This document shows positions 3,531 to 61,186 of a DNA stretch of 64,000 nucleotides, piece after piece. This DNA is from Fimbriimonadia bacterium (lineage in GTDB: Bacteria > Armatimonadota > Fimbriimonadia > Fimbriimonadales > JABRVX01), in NCBI GenBank assembly GCA_041483895.1, contig JBGPGO010000013.1:1-64000 (forward strand). Reading direction: 5' to 3'. Each line of letters opens with the position of its first letter. Within the stretch, counting starts at the first letter, position 1. A program made the position numbers and the translations under genes. The notes under the pieces are model-generated. The model was not told the origin of the DNA. It was given only the letters and a program-made list of their open reading frames with translations, and did no database searches.

Positions 3531-4214
3531 TCACCGAGCAAGCGGTGATAGCTTGTCCAGTTTCCACCATTCAGGAATCATCCAAAACGGCACGTATGTC
3601 TCAGCGGAGACAAAGTCGACACCCGTGACGTTGTTTATCCGAAAGATTTCGACGGCCCTCTCTGAAGCGAACTGATAGCCACCCCAACCAATGACTTCAA
3701 AGAGGTCTGTGCCATCGTAGTTCTGGGTATCGAGAATTAGGCCATTATATTTCTTGACCTGCTCATTTGACTGACAAAATATACACATATCCTTCGATTT
3801 CCGAACAAAACCCGACATCCTTTCATCAAACTTAAGTGGAAGTTGGATGAGATGAATTTCCCGATAAACGGGCGGCTGCTTTTTCAATTTGTCAAGCGAA
3901 CGATGGGCCACTCGGACGACGGTCGCAGGAGGTGCCATACTTTCAATTCCGGTGATACCATTATCTAAGACAATCTGCAAGAGCCGATCCGATGCGAAGA
4001 GCGAAAAGGTGACATGAAGTAGGTCGGGATATTTCGTGTTGCTCAGCTCAAACAGATGGGGAGGTAACCACACTTTGTGACCAAGCTGACTTCCGCATTC
4101 GGGGCAACGGGGACCGTCTCCAATCAGAACCGGATCAACCTCGTCAGGCTCGGCGTAGTGGGCTTCGTATGTCGGGGAGCCACTAAGGCCCCGATTTATC
4201 AGAAAGAACTTCAT
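3531..4214 (-). CDS. Putative immunity protein for the RHS toxin (two CxxC motifs; Imm11/DUF1629-like)
   Basis: 4-nt overlap with the toxin stop; CPEC and CIFC motifs; YDGTDLF...FASER C-terminal motif; AT-richer than flanking genes. Confidence 0.7.
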   Translation of the reverse strand: MKFFLINRGLSGSPTYEAHYAEPDEVDPVLIGDGPRCPECGSQLGHKVWLPPHLFELSNTKYPDLLHVTFSLFASDRLLQIVLDNGITGIESMAPPATVVRVAHRSLDKLKKQPPVYREIHLIQLPLKFDERMSGFVRKSKDMCIFCQSNEQVKKYNGLILDTQNYDGTDLFEVIGWGGYQFASERAVEIFRINNVTGVDFVSAETYVPFWMIPEWWKLDKLSPLAR

Positions 4215-7200
4215 CGGCGGGGAATTCCTCCACGAAGGGTTGGAATATAGCCTGGGAATTTGCTTTGGGAATCAGGTCGACCGTACCAATCCTGGAGAAA
4301 TCCTTCGAACTCCTCGATTGTCGCCTTCCTATTGGTGCCCAACCAATCCTCCACAGTCGGGTCGAATTCTCTATGCCAGCTGCAATAGCCGTCGTGAGCA
4401 GCGGCATCCTTCGCTCTAACCATCAAATTGGCATCCTCCCTGGAAACTTTTCCGGCGAGGGTCTGGTGCTTCGCCAGCGCCCGCTCGGTCCTTCTCGTGA
4501 TCACGTGGTGCTTCTGACCGCACTGATTATGAACCAGAATTCCGGCTGGCGAGACAAAGTAGGTATGGTCCTCGCCGACCTCCAGGTTGTACACCTTGAC
4601 AGGGAAGACCTCTCTCGAGACCACCGCAATCTGAAGCGGTCCTGCGCGGGTCTGGACGCAGTTGCCAACTTGAAGCAGCCCAGCGGGAACCCATCCGGCG
4701 TCAGGGACATAGACCGGGTGCTCCTCGGTCAGTCGGAGAATGGTTCCGTCAGAAAGACCGAGAACGACCAAGCTCTCCACCTGCCGAACGAACGCCCGCG
4801 TGACTGAAGCGAGATGCACCTTCAATTCGGCGGTCCCAGGTGCCGGCGACGCAATCTTCCCCATCCGCTGTACGGTGGCGCCGCCGACGGCAAACACCTT
4901 GTCCCCGGGCCGAATCTGCTCGATCGGCCGCATCCCGTCTTCTGTCCACACAAGCGTGCCGGCAGGGAAACAGTTACCGAGCCCAAGAAGCTTCCGGATC
5001 CAGTTACCGAGACTAGCCCACTTGTTCTTGATGCCGGTCCAAAAGCCCGCAAGCCACTTGTTGTGCGCCAAAACCTGATCCGAGCCGACAAAGTAGGTGT
5101 GAGGTGAATCAACCGAGAGGTTATAAACGGGGACGGCAGGAAGCGACTCGATAGCCGTAATCTGCACCTGGTCGGAGTGCGTCACCAACCAATCGCCGAC
5201 CTTCAGTCGGGACGCGGGGACCCAGCCGGAACCGACCCGATACAAGGGGTGCTCGCCAGTCACTTCCAAGGCGCCCTGCGAGGCGAACGTCAAACGCAAT
5301 CTCTCCGCCCCAGGAAGCTCGATCAGAGATAGCACCTTGGCGGTCGTATTCAGCCCGGTCGACGCATCGCGAGCGACCACGACGTCACCCGAATGAAGCT
5401 GATCGATGGCCGTGTAGCCCGTGGGCGTCAGTACCGGTGTTCCCGCCGGAAAACATGCATGAGATTCCTTTGCTACCTTGAAATACTCGACGGCCTCCTG
5501 CGTGCCTTTGATCAACCCCTTTACCAATGGCGGCGCCGCAAATGGGACCGCCGCACAGGCCACGTCGATTGCGGCGTCCATGAACTTCTGCCGCGCAGTC
5601 TCCGAATCGCCGGAGAGTTCCGCCCCGATCCCTTCTCCCAAATCGTACAAGAAGAATGCCCCGTCCATTATCAGCCACCAACACTCGCCGGAGGGATCCG
5701 ATCGAACGATGGGACTGTTGCCGCAATAGGAATAGACATTTGGGTCGTTGCCGAACGGTCCGATCGGGTCCCGCTGCAGCCACCGGCCAACATGCGGGTC
5801 GTACTCCCTAGCGCCAATGTGATATAGCTTTGTGGCGGGAATGTATTGGTAGCCGTCAGCCGAATTCCAACGGAATGGATTGGAAGTGGCGCCCGTCTGA
5901 CTTACGATGTTGCCCCAGGCGTCGTATGTGTATTTGTCGGTGATCGTGCCCTGATTGGTGACAAGAAGCCGGGAATTTCCCAGGCCGTCCCCAAGGTAAT
6001 ATTTTCGTGCGGCGCCCGCCACCTGATACACCGGACCCGCCGGACCCCACACATAGCGAGCGACCAAATTGCCGGCGCTATTCAGCTCGGCAATCAGGTC
6101 ACCGAACTGATCGTATAGATAGTAGCTGGTGGTGGTGCCAACCGTTTGCTTAACGCGTTGGTCTAGGGCGTCATAGGATGCTTGATTGATGGGTGAGCCG
6201 GACAGCCGTACTTCAACAAGATTGTCCAAACTGTCAAAATTGGTGTCCGTGACACCCGCCGCATCCGTTCTTTGCGACCGAGCTCCGTTGCTATCGTAAA
6301 GATAGCTGGCCACTCCGCTGTCTGTCGCTAGCTGATTCGTATGGACCGTGCCGGCCGAATATTCCGTGAATGTGCGCGTGCCCAAAGTGGCCAGATTCCC
6401 GCCCAGGTCATATGTGAAGTTGGTCGGCGTGCCCGCGCGGGTCTCTTGACGAAGCTGCCCGTACGGATCGTATGCCCATGCAACGTTGGTGGTGCTCAGA
6501 CCGACCATTTCGGTGGAAGACGCAGGCAGGTTGTCGGGATACGGAGCGTAAGAGTAACTCGCTAGCACCGCGCCCGGATTGCCGAACAGCATCATTTGGA
6601 ATGCGACCTTGCGATGCTCCACTCGCTCGAGGAAATCATGTCCGTGACCGGCCGAATCACCCCAATAAAGGGACGTCTCCAGCTTTTCCCCGGCCATCGA
6701 GATCAGGACGAGATTGCCCGCGCCGTCGTAGGTGAAGGTCGTCACTTCCGTCGGCGAAGTTGTGTCATCGTCGATTTCTATCACACGACCGGCCGCGTCA
6801 TACGTGTAGTTGAGGCGTTGCAGAATCGTCGATCCGAGCTTCAGAGTCTCTCGGCTGACGGAACCGTCGGGCGTATACAGGTAGTCGATGACGTATCCGG
6901 TCCCCGGCCCATTTGGGTATTGCGTCATCCGGCTCACCCAATTCGTGAGAGGGTCGTAGATAAAGTCAGTTCGTCGCAGCTCCACGCCGCTATCGGTCAC
7001 CTTCGCGGACTGGACAACTCCGCCCGGGTCATACACATATTCGTGCGTTGTCGTGCCAAATATCCTCTTGCGCAGCCATCGGTTCTTGTTGTATTCATAG
7101 CTGACCGTGCCGGTCGGCCGGACGATCTGCCGGATCAATCCATCGGTTGTGTAGTTGAACAGAACTGTGCGTGACGCGACGGTCGATCCGTCCCAGGAAT

Positions 7201-9237: not shown

Positions 9238-9265
9238 ATTATAAGCTAATTACGATAAATGTCAA
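9238..9265 (-). promoter_or_regulatory. Consensus sigma70 promoter for the RHS toxin operon
   Basis: Minus strand TTGACA (9265-9260), 16 nt, TATAAT (9243-9238) within an AT-rich intergenic region. Confidence 0.75.
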
Positions 9266-9348: not shown

Positions 9349-12081
9349 ATGGTGTTTCTCGTGGCGATGATGGGGCTGCTTTCCCAAGACAGCTGCTCCG
9401 TGGACTGGACCCCGGCGGAGCGGCAGGGGATCGAGACGGCCCTGCATGCGATGAACATGACGCCGGAGGACCTGCGCTACAACAAGCGCCCGTTCAACGA
9501 CAAATATCGGCTGCCGATTGTGGACAGGTGCCTGGATGATCCGCTCGCCGTGCCGGTGGAAGTGGAGATACTGAGGAGCCATTTGTTCCAGCGCTTCGAA
9601 CGGCTTCCGTCAGTCTTGATGAGTCCGCTCTTCTCCGATTATCATCAGACAATTCCGGCGATGGTAGGCGGCTTTCAGAATAATAGCAATTTGCGGCAAT
9701 TGCCGAAAGCTTTGCATGAGCCGGCACGACGATTGATAGAATCGGTGGAATATGTAAACGCACGTCTCTCCAAAGTGTTTCGTCCCCTCAATGAGTCGGA
9801 AAGGCGCGATCTCATTAACAGCTTGCCTCAAATCGCTTTGGAAGAAGAGACGAAGATTCAGTTCGATTTTCAAAAGCCAAATGCTAAAAGATTAAAACCC
9901 GATTCTGTCTGGAAACTTCTCGATAAGATCGATATGCGCGAACTTGCCAACGTTGCTGATTTGCTCTCGTGGCAATCGCACGAACTGGCTTCAGATTTTT
10001 CCCATGCACGCAGAATGATTTCTAATTGGCGCGGTAAGGTCTCCATAAACACTGCCTACGGAAGAATTGTCATTGCGGGGACCGGAGATGACGTTCATGA
10101 CTACGGGCGCGATGTGATCGCAATCATCGAACTCGGTGGCAACGACACCTACCGCGGTGCAACCGGCGGAGCAATCGGCAACGCGACCATGATCATCGAT
10201 CTGGCGGGCAACGACAACTACGATCTCGGCGATCTTTCCGGCGGAGCGGGACTGCTCGGAATCGGCCTGCTCTATGATGTCGCGGGCGATGACACTTTTC
10301 GCGGCGGGCATCTCTGTTTCGGCGCGGGGCTGGCCGGCGTCGGAATGCTTATCGATCGAGCCGGCAACGATGTCTACACGGGAAAGACCATGACGCAAGG
10401 GTTCGCGATGTTCGGCCTCGGGTGGCTTGATGACTGGGCGGGTAACGATCTCCACGACGCCTGGTTCATGGCGCAAGGCGCGGCGGCAACGATGGGAATC
10501 GGCATTCTTTCCGACCATCGCGGCAACGATATCTACCGCGCCGGAGGGTGGCTTCTCAACGCGCCGCTGTTAGAAAAAGAAAAGGTCCATTATAGTTTCG
10601 CGCAGGGGTTCGCGACAGGATTCCGCGAAGACACCGGCGGCAAATCGGGCGGCATCGGCTTCCTTTATGACGGCGCTGGGGACGACACATACAGCGCCGA
10701 AAGCTATGCCCAAGGCGCAAGCTACTGGTTCTCTTTCGGCGCGCTTCTCGACATGGGCGGACATGATAGCTACGATAGCTACTACTACTCGCAAGCGTCC
10801 GCCATGCACCTGACCGTCGCCGCGCTGATGGATATGGGCGGCGACGATTCCTATTCCTGCAAGAAGGGCGCGATGCACGCCATCGGCCACGATTACGGCG
10901 TCGCGGTCATGCTGGATCGCGCAGGCAACGACGCATACACAGGCGCAAATACCAAACCCGGCGTCGGCAATGCGAACGGCGTGGGTATATTCGTTGACTC
11001 TGCCGGCGATGACGGATATAATGGCCCGCCGGCGGTCGGCAATCCCGCGCGCGGATCCGGAAGCGTCGGCATCTTTGTCGATCTCGGCGGCGCGGATCGC
11101 TATTATCCAGGATTCGCGGACGGCCAAGTTGCGGTCAAAGATCAGTGGGCGGTCGCGCTCGACATGCCCGATCCGCTAAAAACCGAGACGACCACGCAGG
11201 CAACCGAAACGCCAAAACCGCCCATCGTCGGATCCATCCCCGCCCCGAACGAGAAAGACATGGAGCAGATCTACAAGGATGCCAGTCTGTGGGAGGTCGG
11301 CGGCGCGCGTGAAAAAGTACGAGCGGCCCGCCACAAGCTGATCGGCATCGGCCTCCCAGCCTGCAAATACCTGGCGTACAAGAAGCTTAAAACAGTGGAT
11401 AACCTGAGCATGCGGACCTTCGTCGAAGTGTTTGGCGCGGTAGGCCCGGAAGCGCAACTTCTCCTCGTGAAACACCTGAACGATTCGGACGAGAATCAGA
11501 CGAAGAACCTGTTGCGGATGGTGCAGGAGATCAAAATCACCTCCGCCGCCGACTATCTCGTGCCACTAATATACAATCCCAAGTTCATCAAGCAAGCGCT
11601 GCGTGTCGCGGGTGCGCTAAAGGCGAAGGACCTTGTCCCGGAACTAATTATCCCGGCGATCAGCCCAGACGAAACAATCGCACTAGAAGCCGTGATCGCC
11701 TTGGGACAGATCGGCGACCCGAGAGCGGCGGAAGTTCTCGCCGACGCCCTGTCCGAAGATTCCATGCCCGTTCGCGAAGCCGCTGCAGTATCTCTTGTCC
11801 AGCTCGGTCCCATCGTTATTCCGCTGCTAAATGCATATCTCGCCTCCGATATCGAGAGGGACAAACGAATGGCCCTAAAGGTACTTCGACAACTCAAAGT
11901 CGCAGATGCCGAATCGTACGCGGTTCGGTTCTTAGATGATAAGGATTGGGGCGTGCGGCTGGATGCGATCGAAACCCTGGTGGCAATCGGCAAATCCGAC
12001 ATCGCGCTCACCCATCGGGAGCGGGAGACAAATCCGCTCCTTCTGGCAAGACTCGACGCCATCGCGGCGAAGAACAACTAG
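9349..12081 (+). CDS. Large exported protein with D-x-x-G-[ND]-D-x-Y repeats and C-terminal HEAT repeats
   Basis: Hydrophobic N-terminus; more than ten G-x-L-x-D-x-x-G-[ND]-D-x-Y motifs; ALGQIGDPRA and VREAAA HEAT-like repeats. Confidence 0.8.
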   Translation: MVFLVAMMGLLSQDSCSVDWTPAERQGIETALHAMNMTPEDLRYNKRPFNDKYRLPIVDRCLDDPLAVPVEVEILRSHLFQRFERLPSVLMSPLFSDYHQTIPAMVGGFQNNSNLRQLPKALHEPARRLIESVEYVNARLSKVFRPLNESERRDLINSLPQIALEEETKIQFDFQKPNAKRLKPDSVWKLLDKIDMRELANVADLLSWQSHELASDFSHARRMISNWRGKVSINTAYGRIVIAGTGDDVHDYGRDVIAIIELGGNDTYRGATGGAIGNATMIIDLAGNDNYDLGDLSGGAGLLGIGLLYDVAGDDTFRGGHLCFGAGLAGVGMLIDRAGNDVYTGKTMTQGFAMFGLGWLDDWAGNDLHDAWFMAQGAAATMGIGILSDHRGNDIYRAGGWLLNAPLLEKEKVHYSFAQGFATGFREDTGGKSGGIGFLYDGAGDDTYSAESYAQGASYWFSFGALLDMGGHDSYDSYYYSQASAMHLTVAALMDMGGDDSYSCKKGAMHAIGHDYGVAVMLDRAGNDAYTGANTKPGVGNANGVGIFVDSAGDDGYNGPPAVGNPARGSGSVGIFVDLGGADRYYPGFADGQVAVKDQWAVALDMPDPLKTETTTQATETPKPPIVGSIPAPNEKDMEQIYKDASLWEVGGAREKVRAARHKLIGIGLPACKYLAYKKLKTVDNLSMRTFVEVFGAVGPEAQLLLVKHLNDSDENQTKNLLRMVQEIKITSAADYLVPLIYNPKFIKQALRVAGALKAKDLVPELIIPAISPDETIALEAVIALGQIGDPRAAEVLADALSEDSMPVREAAAVSLVQLGPIVIPLLNAYLASDIERDKRMALKVLRQLKVADAESYAVRFLDDKDWGVRLDAIETLVAIGKSDIALTHRERETNPLLLARLDAIAAKNN

Positions 12082-52715: not shown

Positions 52716-54437
52716 TTATCGGTCTCCAACCTGCTCGAAATTTAGAAAGGTGATTGCTAGATCTCGCAAGTCGACCTGCCCGCTCTTGTCGAGATCGCCG
52801 TAATCTTGGAGTTTACCAAAGTTCAGGAAAACTGCAGACACGTCAAAAATATCAACGACATCGTCCAGATTGCAATCGCCATTTACCAAATTCAATTCCA
52901 ACGTATCAGCTAAACTGTCGGTCAGGTCAACATCTCTGATCGTTCGACGCAACCAATTACTCGCCTTGACGGAAATGTCAATGTCGAGGGACGGCAAAGT
53001 AGTTGAAAAGTTTCCAATCTCATCGATGGTCACCGGGACTACATTGAATGGAACCTCAAAATCTCGAAATCGCAACTCTAAGACTACATTGGAAGGCATT
53101 TGGCCGGCCAAACTGCCAAACTGCACGCAACCGCTAACTGGGGACAATGTATCTGTACCAAGTTCCCGTACATATATATCGACAGTGAAATTATGGTCCG
53201 AATCTACCAACGGATCCTTATGCATAAAAGCAACACAATTTCCATTGCCGCTGACGAGAACCATACCTGGCTGGATACCATCATCTACATCAACCAAGTT
53301 GCGAGACACCTTCTCTGTCACATGTGTATGTGAGTAGCGAACCAAGGCGTTCAAAGCCTTATAGGGCGGTTCAAGCGCTAGGTTGGCTGCATCGGACCCG
53401 AATGCAATGACAGAGCCATCTGCTGAAACTGTTGGTCCCTGGCTTCCACCAATTCCTTTCTCATCAGCGTTTGAAACGGAAGCTACCGAAAATAAGCCGT
53501 CATTGCGATCCCATGCTAAGATGTCAGCATATTGGTCAGTTTTGGAAGCCGTCAGGTTCGATGCATAACATTCGAATGCTATGAATCTGCCCGAATCACT
53601 TATTGCAGGTCGAACGGAATTCGCATTTGCCTGAACATTTTGTTGTGTCTTCGTAATGCGAGTCGTCGTGCCCATGAGACGGTCTCGCACGAATATGTCA
53701 TATACGCCGTTCGTATCATCCCCTACAAGATTGGTAGCCCAACTTGCAAACGTCACATACCGGCCGTCCGGAGTCATGGCGGGTTGCATCGAATCCCCAT
53801 TCCCAACACCACCTGTGATAGCGACGGATATCAATTCTAGATCACCAGTTACCAGATTCTTGACGAAGACATCACCTTTACCATTAGAATCGGCAGGAAT
53901 CATGTTTGTTGCTGTCGTTGAGAAACAGATAAACGTGCCATCTGAACTAATGCTAAGTGAAGAGATGTTTGCATTCGGGGACTGTCCCGCGGCATTTAGG
54001 GAAGCCGGGTAAGTCGAATTTCGCAATCGGTCTCGAACAAACGCCTGATTCACAAGATTTGGCGATACTCCAAAATTTGACGCTGAGCTTAAGAAAGCAA
54101 TGAACCTTCCATCCCGGCCTATGATTGGCTGTCGGCTACCAGAGTTGCCTTGTTCTCCGGATGAAGAAATAGATACTAGCTCGGTTGAATTATTCAACCT
54201 GTCGCGCAAGAACACATCAAGTGTTCCATTCTGGTCGATCGGCACCAAATTTGTTGCCGCTGACCAGAAAACTACAAATCGCCCATCCGCGCTCATGGAT
54301 GGATCATAGCAATCAGCATTCGCCGAAGAACCATCGAACGCAAGGCTTACGACGTGCAGGTCACCCGTCTTGCAAAACCCCACACTCACGAGTGAAAGCA
54401 GAAGCAAGGAGCAGGCAAAATTGCCGAATCGCATCAT
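52716..54437 (-). CDS. TolB/PD40-type beta-propeller protein with C-terminal Ig + dockerin-like module
   Basis: Repeats S.DGRFV.F.S.ATNLV..D.NG..DVF.RD; tail KASNWLR...NGD...GDLDKSGQVDL.DL...FLNF..GD. Confidence 0.85.
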   Translation of the reverse strand: MMRFGNFACSLLLLSLVSVGFCKTGDLHVVSLAFDGSSANADCYDPSMSADGRFVVFWSAATNLVPIDQNGTLDVFLRDRLNNSTELVSISSSGEQGNSGSRQPIIGRDGRFIAFLSSASNFGVSPNLVNQAFVRDRLRNSTYPASLNAAGQSPNANISSLSISSDGTFICFSTTATNMIPADSNGKGDVFVKNLVTGDLELISVAITGGVGNGDSMQPAMTPDGRYVTFASWATNLVGDDTNGVYDIFVRDRLMGTTTRITKTQQNVQANANSVRPAISDSGRFIAFECYASNLTASKTDQYADILAWDRNDGLFSVASVSNADEKGIGGSQGPTVSADGSVIAFGSDAANLALEPPYKALNALVRYSHTHVTEKVSRNLVDVDDGIQPGMVLVSGNGNCVAFMHKDPLVDSDHNFTVDIYVRELGTDTLSPVSGCVQFGSLAGQMPSNVVLELRFRDFEVPFNVVPVTIDEIGNFSTTLPSLDIDISVKASNWLRRTIRDVDLTDSLADTLELNLVNGDCNLDDVVDIFDVSAVFLNFGKLQDYGDLDKSGQVDLRDLAITFLNFEQVGDR

Positions 54438-56164
54438 TGATCGCCCCGCAATTCGAAATTTAGGAATACGATTGTTAGATCAGTGACACCAACGATGCCG
54501 TTGAGATCCAGGTCGGCACTAGCATTCGGACTTTCAAACGCAGCGAGCACCGCGTTTAGATCACGCAAGTCGATGACAGTGTCGTAGTACGCATTTCCGT
54601 TGATGAGCGCAAAATCGACACCGACGGCATTACCGTTCGCAGTATCAACATTTGTTAATGTTTTCCGCAGCCAATGTCCGACCGCAACCGAGAGATCTAG
54701 CTTAGCCGGAGGAACCTTGGACGAATACGATCCGTCACCATTGATCGCGACCGGCTGAATCCGAAATGCCACGGTTCTCCCGGGGATTCGAAGTTCGAGA
54801 TTTACTTTGCTTGGCGGAGGACCGAGAATTTTGTCGAAGTCAAAGATTCCAGAGATTGTCGGCCATGGTGGATCGCCCAGCACTCTCACATAAGCAGTGG
54901 CCAAAAACGGCGAGTCGGGATTTAGATCTGGGGCATCCGAAATGAATCCGACGATTCCTCCATCCCCGCTAATCGTTGTCTTGTAAGAGTCCCCCCTCGA
55001 TTGGATCCCAAGGGTTGAAGCGGATACCAATTCGGTCTTGCTCGCAGACAGTATTCGGATGTAAACGTTCGCTGTCCCAACCCCAGGGATATCATCGAAG
55101 TTCTTGGCGCTACTGATGAATGCAATTCGGTCCCCGTCATTTGACATACATGGCGTATAAGAACCGTTATCTGCCGGTACTCCGTTGGAATTCACAGTTA
55201 CCAATTGCGTCGTATGTTCAGCTTGGTCCCTGCGATAAATATGGCCAGCGACAGTTGTTACCAACGGATCGATATTATTCGACTCTGTAACGAACGTCAC
55301 AAACTTGCCATCCGGGGTTAGTGACCCCAGATAACCTGCCCGATTCCCCTGCACTCCCGCCGAAGACTTTGACACGAGCTCTGTACGGTAGTTAACACGA
55401 TCTCGCACAAACACATCACTGAACCCGTTCGTATCGCCCGATACTAAATTGGAGCTAAGACTCTCAAAGGCGACATATCGGCCATCCCCACTAACATAAG
55501 AATGCATTGACGCGCCGCTTCCCTGCTTCAAAGGAACGCCGTCTGCAATGGAGATAAGCTCTGTAGTCCCTAATAGTCGATCCCGCAGAAAAACATCATC
55601 CTGCTTATTTAGATCTCCTGTGACCAGATTCGTAGCCTTTGATGAAAAGGCAACGAATCTGCCATCTTGCGAGATCGTCGGGCGGTAACTATCCCCACTT
55701 CCTTGCACACCGGAACTGGAGCATGAAACAAGTTCGATCTGTCGTGAAGCACGATCCTTCAGGAAAATCTGCTGCTTGCCGTTTGTTCCACCCGCCAATA
55801 GATTTGTCGCAGCGCTCTGAAAGACGATAAATCTGCCGGAAGCATCAATACTGCAGTTGCCTGACGGACCATTTGCCTCTGCTCCGGTCGATGAAATTGA
55901 AACCCGCACGGTTGTAAGTAAAGACAGGTCACGAACGAAGACATCGCTGACAGTATTTCGATCGTTCGCCACTAGATTTGCGGCGTTGCTGGAAAAAGCG
56001 ACATAACGCCCGCTTGCACTCATCGCCACATCGTTAGATTGAAGGTCGCCGACGTCCCCATGGGTTGAAATGCTAACAAAGTCGTTCATGCCCTGATCGG
56101 CTCTCGCCAGAGCAAGGCTGACTGCCAAAAGGCTGAACGTGGACAATTTTATAGACTGTGCCAT
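54434..56164 (-). CDS. TolB/PD40-type beta-propeller protein with C-terminal Ig + dockerin-like module (tandem paralogue)
   Basis: Same repeats and tail; ATGA overlap with the downstream paralogue. Confidence 0.85.
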   Translation of the reverse strand: MAQSIKLSTFSLLAVSLALARADQGMNDFVSISTHGDVGDLQSNDVAMSASGRYVAFSSNAANLVANDRNTVSDVFVRDLSLLTTVRVSISSTGAEANGPSGNCSIDASGRFIVFQSAATNLLAGGTNGKQQIFLKDRASRQIELVSCSSSGVQGSGDSYRPTISQDGRFVAFSSKATNLVTGDLNKQDDVFLRDRLLGTTELISIADGVPLKQGSGASMHSYVSGDGRYVAFESLSSNLVSGDTNGFSDVFVRDRVNYRTELVSKSSAGVQGNRAGYLGSLTPDGKFVTFVTESNNIDPLVTTVAGHIYRRDQAEHTTQLVTVNSNGVPADNGSYTPCMSNDGDRIAFISSAKNFDDIPGVGTANVYIRILSASKTELVSASTLGIQSRGDSYKTTISGDGGIVGFISDAPDLNPDSPFLATAYVRVLGDPPWPTISGIFDFDKILGPPPSKVNLELRIPGRTVAFRIQPVAINGDGSYSSKVPPAKLDLSVAVGHWLRKTLTNVDTANGNAVGVDFALINGNAYYDTVIDLRDLNAVLAAFESPNASADLDLNGIVGVTDLTIVFLNFELRGDQ

Positions 56165-58607: not shown

Positions 58608-59293
58608 AAGTTGCTGTCGTGCAATTTCCAGGGTCCAACTGCGATCAGGACGCTCTGTTTGGTGTTCGTCTGCTGGGGCATCAGTCGGAATATGTGTGGC
58701 ACGCTTCCCGCATCCCGTCGGGATTCGACGCCGTCATCGTGCCGGGCGGGTTCACGTTTGGGGACTATCTGCGCTGCGGGGCGATTGCGCGGTTTTCTCC
58801 GGCGATGGAGTCGGTGCGGGACATGGCGGCGGCCGGCGCGCCGGTGCTGGGGATCTGCAACGGGTTCCAGATTTTGTGCGAATCGGGCCTCCTTCCCGGC
58901 GCCCTTGTCCGCAACGCCTGCGGGCGTTTCGTCTGCCGCGACATCTATCTGCGCGTCGATTCCACCGAATCCATTCTCACCTCCAATTGCCACCTCGGCC
59001 AGGTTCTGCGCATGCCGGTGGCGCACGGCGAGGGCTGCTATGTCATCGATCCTGCCCATCCCCCGCGCGTGGTGCTGCGCTATTGCGATGCGTCAGGCGA
59101 CTGCACCTCCGACTCCAACCCCAACGGCTCCGAGGACCACATCGCGGGGGTAGCGAACGATCGCGGCAACGTCGTCGGCATGATGCCCCATCCGGAGAGG
59201 GCTGTATCGGAGATGCTGGGGTCGTCGGACGGGAGCGCATTATTGGATTGTCTCCTGCAAATGACCGCCTTCAAGGTCGCCATCACCCTGTAG
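58604..59293 (+). CDS. purQ: Phosphoribosylformylglycinamidine synthase subunit PurQ
   Basis: FPGSNC, PGGFTFGDYLR, GICNGFQ, AHGEG, MMPHPER. Confidence 0.96.
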   Translation: MKVAVVQFPGSNCDQDALFGVRLLGHQSEYVWHASRIPSGFDAVIVPGGFTFGDYLRCGAIARFSPAMESVRDMAAAGAPVLGICNGFQILCESGLLPGALVRNACGRFVCRDIYLRVDSTESILTSNCHLGQVLRMPVAHGEGCYVIDPAHPPRVVLRYCDASGDCTSDSNPNGSEDHIAGVANDRGNVVGMMPHPERAVSEMLGSSDGSALLDCLLQMTAFKVAITL

Positions 59294-59434
59294 ACACTGT
59301 TTTCCGTGTGAGCACTAGGCAGCTTGTCCACAATACTTTCCCATTCTAGGCTCTACGAAATCTTCGCCTTTGGACAGTTTAGACGCCGCACAATTCGCGT
59401 CGAACTATGATATCATAAGGTATCGTGGGTTGAT

Positions 59435-61186
59435 ATGGAGATTTCAAGAACGCGTACAGCATGGGCTATCTCAGCAATTGCCATGAGCTTCGTCGTAATG
59501 TCTTCAGGGGGCTTTGGACAAGACCTCCTTTGGACCGCTCAATTGGGCACGATCTCATTGGCTGGAGAAATCGGTTGCCAATCAGACCACGACGGAAACA
59601 TTTACGTCGCTTGCGCAGCACCTTACTCGCCAGTTCTCACGAAGTATGACAAGAACGGCAATATGGTTTGGCAATACAAAGGGACCGGAGGCGGCATAAA
59701 TCATTCTCGCTTGGCAATCAGCAGCGACGGCAGCATCTTTCTTGTCTCCAATGACAGCGATAATGTCTTAACGTCTCGCTTTGACAGTTCCGGAAATCTG
59801 ATTTGGATGAAGACCTATGATTACGCAGGCTACGACGATTTAGCTGTTGCCGCGCAGACTGATAGCCTCGGCAACGTCTTTGTGGCGGGAGAAGGCTATA
59901 CTTACGGCGGCTATCAATTGGACTCGTTTGTTCTCAAATATGATAAGAACGGCAAGCTCCTATGGTCTCGGGTGCGGGCAGCGCCTCAGAGTGATATAAC
60001 GAGTGCGATCGCAGTCGATGACCAGAATAATCTCATCGTCATTGGATCGGTCGCCAATCCGATAACACCGCATAAGCTCGTACTCATCAAGTACGACCCG
60101 AAAGGAAACGTACTTTGGGAACAGGAATACAGTCCGGAACCAGACTGCTTGAGCGCCGGTTATTGCCTCGCAATCGATCATAAAGGAGGAGTGGTTGTTG
60201 GCGGGACATATCGAAAGCCGGACCTCATCGGAAGTACGGATTACGGGCATCTGTTGATATCGAAGTACGATCTTGCGACCGGAAACCTCGAATGGGTCAA
60301 CACTTCGCTGGCGACTCCCGATGGAGTTGATCTCTGCGTATCGGTAAAATTCGATCCCACAGGCACAATCCATGCCAGTGTTTTTTCTGGTCTTCGCCCT
60401 TATGAAACTCCAAGTTGGGTCACGATCATGCGCCTTGATGAACTTGGAAACGTGCTCAATCAGGTCGCTCAATCAGATTGCGAACGCCCAACGATCGCCG
60501 CCGAAAATGATGGGTCAACGTGCGTCGCTGTACAATCTCGCCGGTACCCATCCGATCTGATCACCTTTAGAGTCTCTCCAATCGGAAATATCGTCTGGAG
60601 CAAAGCGTTTCGTGTTGGGGAAACTTATTCGCAAACACCGGTAAGTACTATCACTGATCCATCAGGTAATTGTTACGCAATATGCGGCAGTTATGACTCG
60701 AATAACTTTTCGGACAAACGAGTTGCGTTGCTTGAGTATTCGAATCGCGAGGCCACCGGTTCTTTACTCGGATCCCTTGTGGCGAACGACCTCGCAGATA
60801 CTACGGGTTTTGAGGCAGTGATTGAATTGCGAGAGCCAGGGAATCTATTACCATTTGCCAAGTATCCAGTTGTTCTTGGATCATCTGGCACTTTCGCGAT
60901 CGATGAGGTTATTCCCGGAACCTATGACGCTTCCGTTAAGCCCTCCCACTGGCTTAGGCAGACGCTTCCCAATATCGATGTTGGACCAAGCGGCGCAAAT
61001 GTCGCTTTCTCGCTGCGAAATGGAGACGCAACCCGAGATAATTTTGCGGACCTAAAGGACATCAGCAGAATCTTTCTCGATTGGGAAACCACGGAGCCGA
61101 TGTCCGATCTGAACAGTGACGGAGTCGTAGATTTGCCTGACCTGAGCATCGCATTCCTGAACTTCGGCCAAAAAGGCGATCAATAG
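59435..61186 (+). CDS. SBBP-like beta-propeller secreted protein with C-terminal Ig + dockerin-like module
   Basis: Repeats D..GN.YV / KYD.NG...W; tail KPSHWLR...NGD...DLNSDGVVDLPDL..AFLNF..GDQ. Confidence 0.82.
   Translation: MEISRTRTAWAISAIAMSFVVMSSGGFGQDLLWTAQLGTISLAGEIGCQSDHDGNIYVACAAPYSPVLTKYDKNGNMVWQYKGTGGGINHSRLAISSDGSIFLVSNDSDNVLTSRFDSSGNLIWMKTYDYAGYDDLAVAAQTDSLGNVFVAGEGYTYGGYQLDSFVLKYDKNGKLLWSRVRAAPQSDITSAIAVDDQNNLIVIGSVANPITPHKLVLIKYDPKGNVLWEQEYSPEPDCLSAGYCLAIDHKGGVVVGGTYRKPDLIGSTDYGHLLISKYDLATGNLEWVNTSLATPDGVDLCVSVKFDPTGTIHASVFSGLRPYETPSWVTIMRLDELGNVLNQVAQSDCERPTIAAENDGSTCVAVQSRRYPSDLITFRVSPIGNIVWSKAFRVGETYSQTPVSTITDPSGNCYAICGSYDSNNFSDKRVALLEYSNREATGSLLGSLVANDLADTTGFEAVIELREPGNLLPFAKYPVVLGSSGTFAIDEVIPGTYDASVKPSHWLRQTLPNIDVGPSGANVAFSLRNGDATRDNFADLKDISRIFLDWETTEPMSDLNSDGVVDLPDLSIAFLNFGQKGDQ

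Follow-up and report, generated by a model that had tools for sequence, protein, structure and literature searches.

Two HINT domains around a short cationic amphipathic helix in an RHS toxin of a Fimbriimonadia bacterium

The RHS/YD polymorphic toxin P0001 contains two HINT domains in tandem, which are separated by 29 residues. This arrangement raises the question of how a second HINT domain comes to lie in one toxin, and whether the stretch between the two domains is a product, a working part or an accident of gene assembly. An earlier note on this DNA proposed that the two domains could release, cyclise or ligate an antimicrobial-like peptide, or splice it onto the nuclease as a membrane-penetrating leader. 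The gene lies in a window of 64,000 nucleotides, which is the whole stretch of DNA that was analysed, and its features are as follows.

9238..9265, reverse strand: sigma-70-type promoter consensus (12/12 matches), a consensus match and no proof of expression
9195-9190, reverse strand: ribosome-binding-like GAGGTG upstream of P0001
4211..9184, reverse strand: RHS/YD polymorphic toxin P0001 (1657 aa)
5687..5926, reverse strand: RHS-associated core ending in DPSG (aa 1087-1166; TIGR03696)
5456..5686, reverse strand: pre-HINT segment with a moderately hydrophobic stretch (77 aa), common to P0001 and its paralog
5060..5455, reverse strand: HINT1, A-type BIL / PT-HINT (132 aa; Cys1, TGEH, terminal His-Asn, +1 Lys)
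4973..5059, reverse strand: spacer, a cationic amphipathic Trp-rich helix (29 aa; 4 Lys, 1 Arg, 4 Trp, no Asp or Glu)
4526..4972, reverse strand: HINT2, A-type BIL / PT-HINT of separate origin (149 aa; Cys1, TEEH, His-Asn, +1 Gln, +2 Cys)
4211..4525, reverse strand: C-terminal domain, probable HNH/EndoVII-fold nuclease, AHH/SHH/GHH2-like (104 aa)
3531..4214, reverse strand: probable immunity protein, Imm11 / double-CXXCG-like (227 aa), overlapping the toxin stop codon

P0001 thus runs from the RHS core through a hydrophobic segment, HINT1, the spacer and HINT2 to an HNH-like nuclease tip, and re-reading of the sequence gives HINT1, the spacer and HINT2 the same coordinates, frame and residues as those first reported. 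The RHS/YD repeats and the core are above cut-off (PF05593, 86 bits; TIGR03696, 65 bits against a cut-off of 32.5), and the N-terminus is, by eye, hydrophobic and signal-peptide-like. DPSG at the end of the core is the autoproteolysis site expected from general RHS biology. The pre-HINT segment (76 aa scanned) has a top 19-aa hydropathy of 1.42 and no Pfam match. The N-terminal part of the carrier (window 9184-7700, reverse strand; aa 17-500 of P0001) likewise has no Pfam match; a metagenome scan finds nothing similar outside its own genome, and genomes of the order give weak matches only (6/200). The gene at 9349-12081 (forward strand) diverges from that of P0001 and encodes a 910-aa protein that combines Gly-Asp-Asp-type repeats with HEAT repeats at its C-terminus; the low-GC intergenic region between the two genes also holds the promoter of the toxin. 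Low-GC stretches at 53000-56000 and 59000-61000 of the window (0.47-0.54 against 0.58 for the genome) are possibly acquired DNA.

Both HINT domains are complete, as had been claimed, because each passes the PT-HINT cut-off of 27.7 bits alone (65 and 68 bits) with its motifs intact. They have the fold, Cys1, the block-B TxxH and the His-Asn of A-type BIL / PT-HINT domains, and contain no homing endonuclease. Neither has the Cys, Ser or Thr at +1 that defines class 1 inteins; this position is Lys after HINT1 and Gln after HINT2, in agreement with the earlier note. AlphaFold models both domains mostly at pLDDT >90 (overall pTM 0.46). The conservation of the motifs suggests that HINT1 and HINT2 would each cleave at their N- and C-terminal ends.

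The contigs of four sequencing runs, among which the source sample may be included, agree with the locus with no letter difference, indel or joint. X1 record 6 (4790-5304) spans both spacer junctions, X2 record 15 spans the spacer-HINT1 junction, and X4 record 27 spans the HINT2-spacer junction. An assembly artefact, which had been considered unlikely, is therefore ruled out by the contigs that bridge both junctions and by the divergence between the HINTs (37% identity). The contigs of all four runs become thin near 4650-4790, which proves nothing. A tandem duplication of HINT1 is also ruled out, because the two domains are 37% identical and are no sisters in the tree described below.

The tip is probably a nuclease of the HNH/EndoVII fold, as judged from its sequence. 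Its language-model features relate it to AHH and SHH clusters (0.92), six of its ten best named matches belong to one family or clan, and against the Tox-AHH motif ([AG]HH, N, H, H, Y) it shows KHH, two further His and Tyr. Pfam gives it no nuclease match, including AHH, and the search for homologs finds none but itself among 36 candidates. The 227-aa protein encoded downstream is probably the immunity protein for P0001, since its language-model features relate it to Imm11/CXXCG (0.95-0.97) with a low recognition score, and Pfam Gmx_para_CXXCG matches it at E 0.042, which is under the cut-off. The rows for Tox-AHH and Tox-SHH in the domain table of PMC3482391 name HINT, RHS and Imm11.

The spacer has a charge of +5, a mean hydrophobicity (H) of 0.58 and a hydrophobic moment of 0.57, which is equalled in 14 of 10000 shuffles, and is thus the strongly amphipathic cationic helix that was first described. 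When 29-mers from long ORFs of this genome are filtered for charge >=5, H >=0.45 and moment >=0.5, three of the 181,437 sampled pass, and two of the three are the spacer itself. Flanks of single HINTs combine a moment of >=0.45 with a charge of >=4 in 6/348 cases, and in 0/348 when H >=0.3 is included as well. AlphaFold gives a helix at low confidence (pLDDT 39-46) with no fixed partner, and no Pfam family matches the spacer at E<=10. The spacer therefore has the cationic amphipathic helix that is a criterion of antimicrobial peptides, and these properties, including four Trp, are found together in none of the 348 flanks and in none of the other 50 inter-HINT spacers of similar length described below. 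They speak for release of the helix by the HINTs, in linear, C-terminally ligated or cyclic form, as a second toxin or a permeabiliser. Cleavage at both ends of the spacer is plausible, because the catalytic residues (Cys1, TxxH and His-Asn) are intact in both HINTs and because the helix is membrane-active in character, beyond what a seam should be. BILs yield mainly N- and C-cleaved products according to the available part of PMC7664689, and a BIL can ligate via a lysine amine (PMC8616854), Lys being the +1 residue of HINT1.

Release of the helix as a separate agent is nevertheless quite unlikely. Lys is the commonest residue at +1 in this collection (224/581, many from one family), and is not peculiar to HINT1. 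The spacer is present as a single copy per 180-kDa toxin, while many copies of an antimicrobial peptide are generally required for each cell. The ORFs of >=60 aa at the locus include no bacteriocin-type precursor, exporter or immunity gene; neither a second immunity gene nor a transporter gene is present at the locus, and the immunity gene abuts a convergent valS-like gene (valS being a label given by sequence reading). The lack of a Pfam match for the spacer and the loss of cationic character in other twin-HINT toxins, as described below, also argue against it.

Comparison with a paralog suggests how the spacer arises. The paralog (G000:C2:151863-146743, reverse strand) matches P0001 with 61% identity over 1386 aa, as far as the C-terminus of HINT1, and its tip after the single HINT is Tox-REase-7, which differs from the P0001 tip. 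The two proteins thus show the constant carrier and variable C-terminal toxin of RHS systems. Three similar helical-repeat proteins are encoded downstream of the paralog and are probably a run of immunity genes. In a tree of 83 HINT domains chosen from fetched proteins (133 columns), in which deep support is weak, HINT1 and the HINT of the paralog form a sister pair (66% identity, support 0.985), and HINT2 lies with weak support among unrelated single-HINT toxins. When aligned from His-Asn, the first 22 residues of the spacer match the post-HINT stub of the paralog with a score of 35, while the other 580 stubs score <=14. When aligned to Cys1, the end of the spacer scores 17-24 with the top three of 530 pre-HINT flanks (P0214, P0230 and the paralog), a match that would be regarded as moderate only. 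The stub match at the start and the pre-HINT-like end together suggest that the spacer consists of a stub of the carrier followed by the pre-HINT helix of a cassette, and that it likely originated as a cassette seam. Replacement of toxin tips by cassettes is a described mode of change in polymorphic toxins (PMC3482391, in the part available), and in several genomes of this phylum short frames with a HINT adjoin long ones.

The exact junction point within the spacer is placed by inference, because the donor of the HINT2-nuclease cassette is found neither by the search for tip homologs nor by two metagenome contig scans, which confirm 0/173 and 0/217 pattern matches as close relatives of the locus. 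An origin of the spacer as the post-DPxG helix of another RHS protein in the same genome is rejected, because both other cores detected by motif scan are dissimilar; in comparisons of the spacer with post-DPxG regions, top local scores among fetched proteins are <=47. The proposal of a purpose-built antimicrobial-peptide device is not sustained, because a cassette junction accounts for the spacer and a second immunity gene is absent. A plain seam, on the other hand, does not explain why the spacer exceeds ordinary flanks in hydrophobicity and amphipathicity.

A seam may still be neutral; the twin HINT would then be a chance outcome of cassette exchange that is tolerated, with release of the nuclease left to HINT2 and the helix idle. 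The lack of a fixed partner for the helix in the AlphaFold models agrees with this, as does the distribution of twin HINTs. No second in-frame twin is found among the matches listed for 401 genomes of the phylum (66 with a PT-HINT match), and none among 61 relatives, so that the twin is present in one genome only within this scope. Six records in a phage collection are rejected as candidates, because by their coordinates they read as single HINTs matched twice. In a census of 358 proteins, retrieved by searches biased towards multi-HINT proteins, 137 contain >=2 full HINTs, indicating that tandem HINTs as such are common. Most of their spacers are short or polar: of 223 inter-HINT spacers, 145 are <12 aa, 51 are 12-60 aa and 27 are longer. 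The other short-spacer RHS twin, P0227 (LHH nuclease), works on paper with a non-amphipathic basic linker of 23 aa (moment 0.10). The earlier note had suggested testing whether spacers of RHS proteins with two HINTs stay cationic and amphipathic; they do not, since cationic, hydrophobic and amphipathic character occur together in 1/51 mid-length spacers, which is that of P0001 itself. A moment of >=0.3 is reached by 3/27 other mid-length spacers, and the 49-aa Gly/Trp spacer of P0182 is amphipathic with a net charge of 0. The extreme amphipathicity of the P0001 spacer and the intactness of both HINTs argue against an idle seam, as does selection on a second family described below, and this explanation is rather unlikely.

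The census contains other architectures. In a large family (P0003-P0012, P0093-P0097 and others), an N-terminus resembling a signal peptide is followed by 2-5 intact HINTs with Lys-Gly(1-5) linkers between them, then by a membrane segment and a Tim44-like domain. P0104, P0124, P0168 and P0217 are proteins of ~3400-3950 aa with internal HINT matches, and those shown have 2-3 residues between adjacent HINTs. P0163, P0138, P0185 and P0129 have two or three HINTs with spacers of 21-31 aa, and their toxin tip is small or absent.

Twenty-three Bacteroidota proteins (the P0112 family, with source names that include Pedobacter, Chryseobacterium, Flavobacterium and Myroides) have the order DUF4280 (PAAR-like), HINT, spacer, HINT and nuclease-type tip, and retain Cys1 and His-Asn around the spacer. 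For the tip, Pfam detects GIY-YIG in the related P0311. At L045:3374-5347, the locus for which the context was scanned, TssD and a VgrG-like gene come before the twin-HINT gene, and Imm26 comes after it; the twin loci L045 and L046 (Pedobacter), L047-L049 and L051 belong to this family. The spacers are 22-31 aa with moments of 0.37-0.62 and net charges of -2 to +4, the charge being zero in 12/23. A stub motif that follows the HINT in 51/52 single-HINT relatives starts 22/23 of these spacers, and their second half is similar to the pre-HINT helix of the same family. The HINT1s of the family cluster with those of single-HINT relatives (support 0.966), while the HINT2s cluster with that of a cyanobacterial single-HINT GIY-YIG toxin with the same tip type (support 0.945). 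In the six twin loci of nine fetched (15 non-independent pairs), the spacer is 56% identical, compared with 48% and 43% for the HINTs, and its pN is 0.27 against a saturated pS of 0.85. These data indicate that nesting arose separately in Bacteroidota and that the helix is under purifying selection there. Amphipathicity is kept, but positive charge is not. AlphaFold gives the spacer of a Bacteroidota twin low confidence (34-41) and no fixed position, and the P0001 and Bacteroidota spacers match with 6.1 bits, a score that is reached by 27/5000 shuffles and 4/46 amphipathic controls.

The P0112 family therefore resembles P0001 in its twin intact HINTs, amphipathic Trp-containing spacer built of a stub and a pre-HINT-like helix, nuclease-type tip and probable immunity gene, but differs in its T6SS carrier, Imm26, mostly neutral and less hydrophobic spacer and independent origin. 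The excerpted 2012 survey (PMC3482391) states that HINT was never found with T6SS; this statement is contradicted by the Bacteroidota PAAR-like family, as assigned to T6SS by gene context. In the single-HINT DUF4280 proteins P0262-P0315, Cys is present <=8 residues before and <=5 residues after the HINT in 48/49 cases, and this pair could form a disulfide that holds carrier and toxin together after HINT excision. Among 125 other single-HINT proteins, the two Cys go together only weakly (p 0.07).

For P0001, the reading that agrees best with these observations is that of a nuclease toxin with nested cassettes and a membrane-binding helix that can be cleaved, and for this reading belief and doubt are about evenly balanced. 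It builds on the anatomy, the separate origins of the HINTs, the stub homology and the amphipathicity, from which the cleavage steps and the membrane binding are extrapolated. On this view, a cassette with a nuclease, an immunity gene and a HINT of its own would have displaced the former toxin tip of a carrier, which consisted of the RHS shell, the hydrophobic segment, HINT1 and a short stub of helix. The core would be cut after DPSG, HINT1 would trim off the hydrophobic segment, and the spacer would then be a membrane-binding leader on HINT2-nuclease. HINT2 would free the nuclease via Asn cyclisation, and the nuclease would kill cells that are not protected by the Imm11-like protein. If HINT2 also makes its N-terminal cut, the helix would be released as a one-per-toxin by-product or entry helper, and not as a weapon. 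The helix thus probably aids delivery rather than acting as a separate antibiotic peptide. Of the functions first proposed, the membrane leader stands as the best reading, one that could equally well prove right or wrong, while a dedicated peptide-making device does not stand in view of 1/51 spacers. HINTs have been proposed to release nucleases in toxins (PMC3113570), and the accessible data on MafB (PMC7738311) and on umbrella toxins (bioRxiv 2023.12.09.570830) are compatible with HINT cleavage without mapping it.

The cargo after DPSG is 491 aa and 53.5 kDa, or ~65,000 cubic angstroms by a volume factor from general knowledge, and the cavity of one YD shell of a different family is ~44,000 cubic angstroms (PMC13018210). 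Full packaging inside the shell is therefore doubtful, and the earlier view of a peptide packaged in an RHS shell is probably incorrect for a 53-kDa cargo, which is likely too large to lie wholly inside. The volume would be less of a difficulty if both HINTs removed themselves by splicing and joined the hydrophobic segment, the helix and the nuclease into a chain of 210 aa (23.6 kDa), because this product (~28,500 cubic angstroms) would fit a cavity of that size and the unprocessed cargo would not. HINT2 has Cys at +2, as do 53/125 non-family single-HINT proteins. Splicing without a +1 nucleophile is reportedly on record, going by the titles of Dassa 2004 and Aranko 2013. However, BIL products are predominantly cleaved (PMC7664689), A-type BILs are unable to ligate according to the excerpted review PMC7765530, and a double reaction would multiply two low yields. 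In 38 RHS-HINT proteins the cargo usually measures 300-786 aa, and fitting inside the shell is therefore not required. Double splicing is thus distinctly unlikely. It is also unlikely that twin-HINT toxins are natural two-intein devices of at least two independent lineages (P0001 and the Bacteroidota PAAR-like T6SS family), which cut out or ligate a selected amphipathic helix without a protease, and that in P0001 this helix has become a membrane-active peptide (linear, ligated or cyclic) that opens the target membrane to the nuclease delivered with it. Should the helix prove to be released and active, P0001 would yield a membrane-active peptide with no need for a protease.

How HINT/BIL domains act in toxins (one-side cut, both-side cut or ligation), and how nuclease tips cross membranes, is still mostly inferred, and P0001 opens the HINT action to a direct test, since the possible outcomes differ in the mass of their products. 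The conserved family in Bacteroidota indicates that nested HINT cassettes can become fixed and stay under selection. We take the spacer to be similar to cationic helical bacteriocins and other antimicrobial peptides in length, positive charge, Trp content and amphipathic helix, but it differs from the bacteriocins in that it has no gene, exporter, immunity gene or Pfam match of its own and is embedded 1:1 in a 180-kDa toxin. As a whole, P0001 resembles the RHS toxins with a pre-toxin HINT, an HNH nuclease and Imm11 (PMC3113570, PMC3482391) in its RHS repeats and core, the HINT before a variable tip and the order of toxin and probable immunity gene. The RHS-HINT toxins of Zhang et al. 2011/2012, as far as the excerpts describe them, have a single HINT between the pre-toxin and toxin domains, whereas P0001 has two around a 29-aa helix. 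The top fold match of the HINTs is the Clostridium thermocellum BIL (PDB 2lwy; E 1e-13, TM 0.89 over the target, 36% identity), which like them has Cys1, TxxH, His-Asn and no +1 nucleophile; P0001 differs in having two copies of different origin with one short common extein. The second fold match, Tetrahymena BUBL1 BIL2 (PDB 6y75), lies between small exteins and ligates through a lysine amine according to the excerpts of PMC8616854, but these exteins are eukaryotic and ubiquitin-like, with no toxin and no short helix between HINTs. The literature search finds no description of a short amphipathic helix flanked by two intact pre-toxin HINTs, in agreement with the earlier note, and the supplementary architecture lists of PMC3482391 may contain such proteins. 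Every part of P0001 is from a known family, and the HINT-helix-HINT arrangement is what appears to be new.
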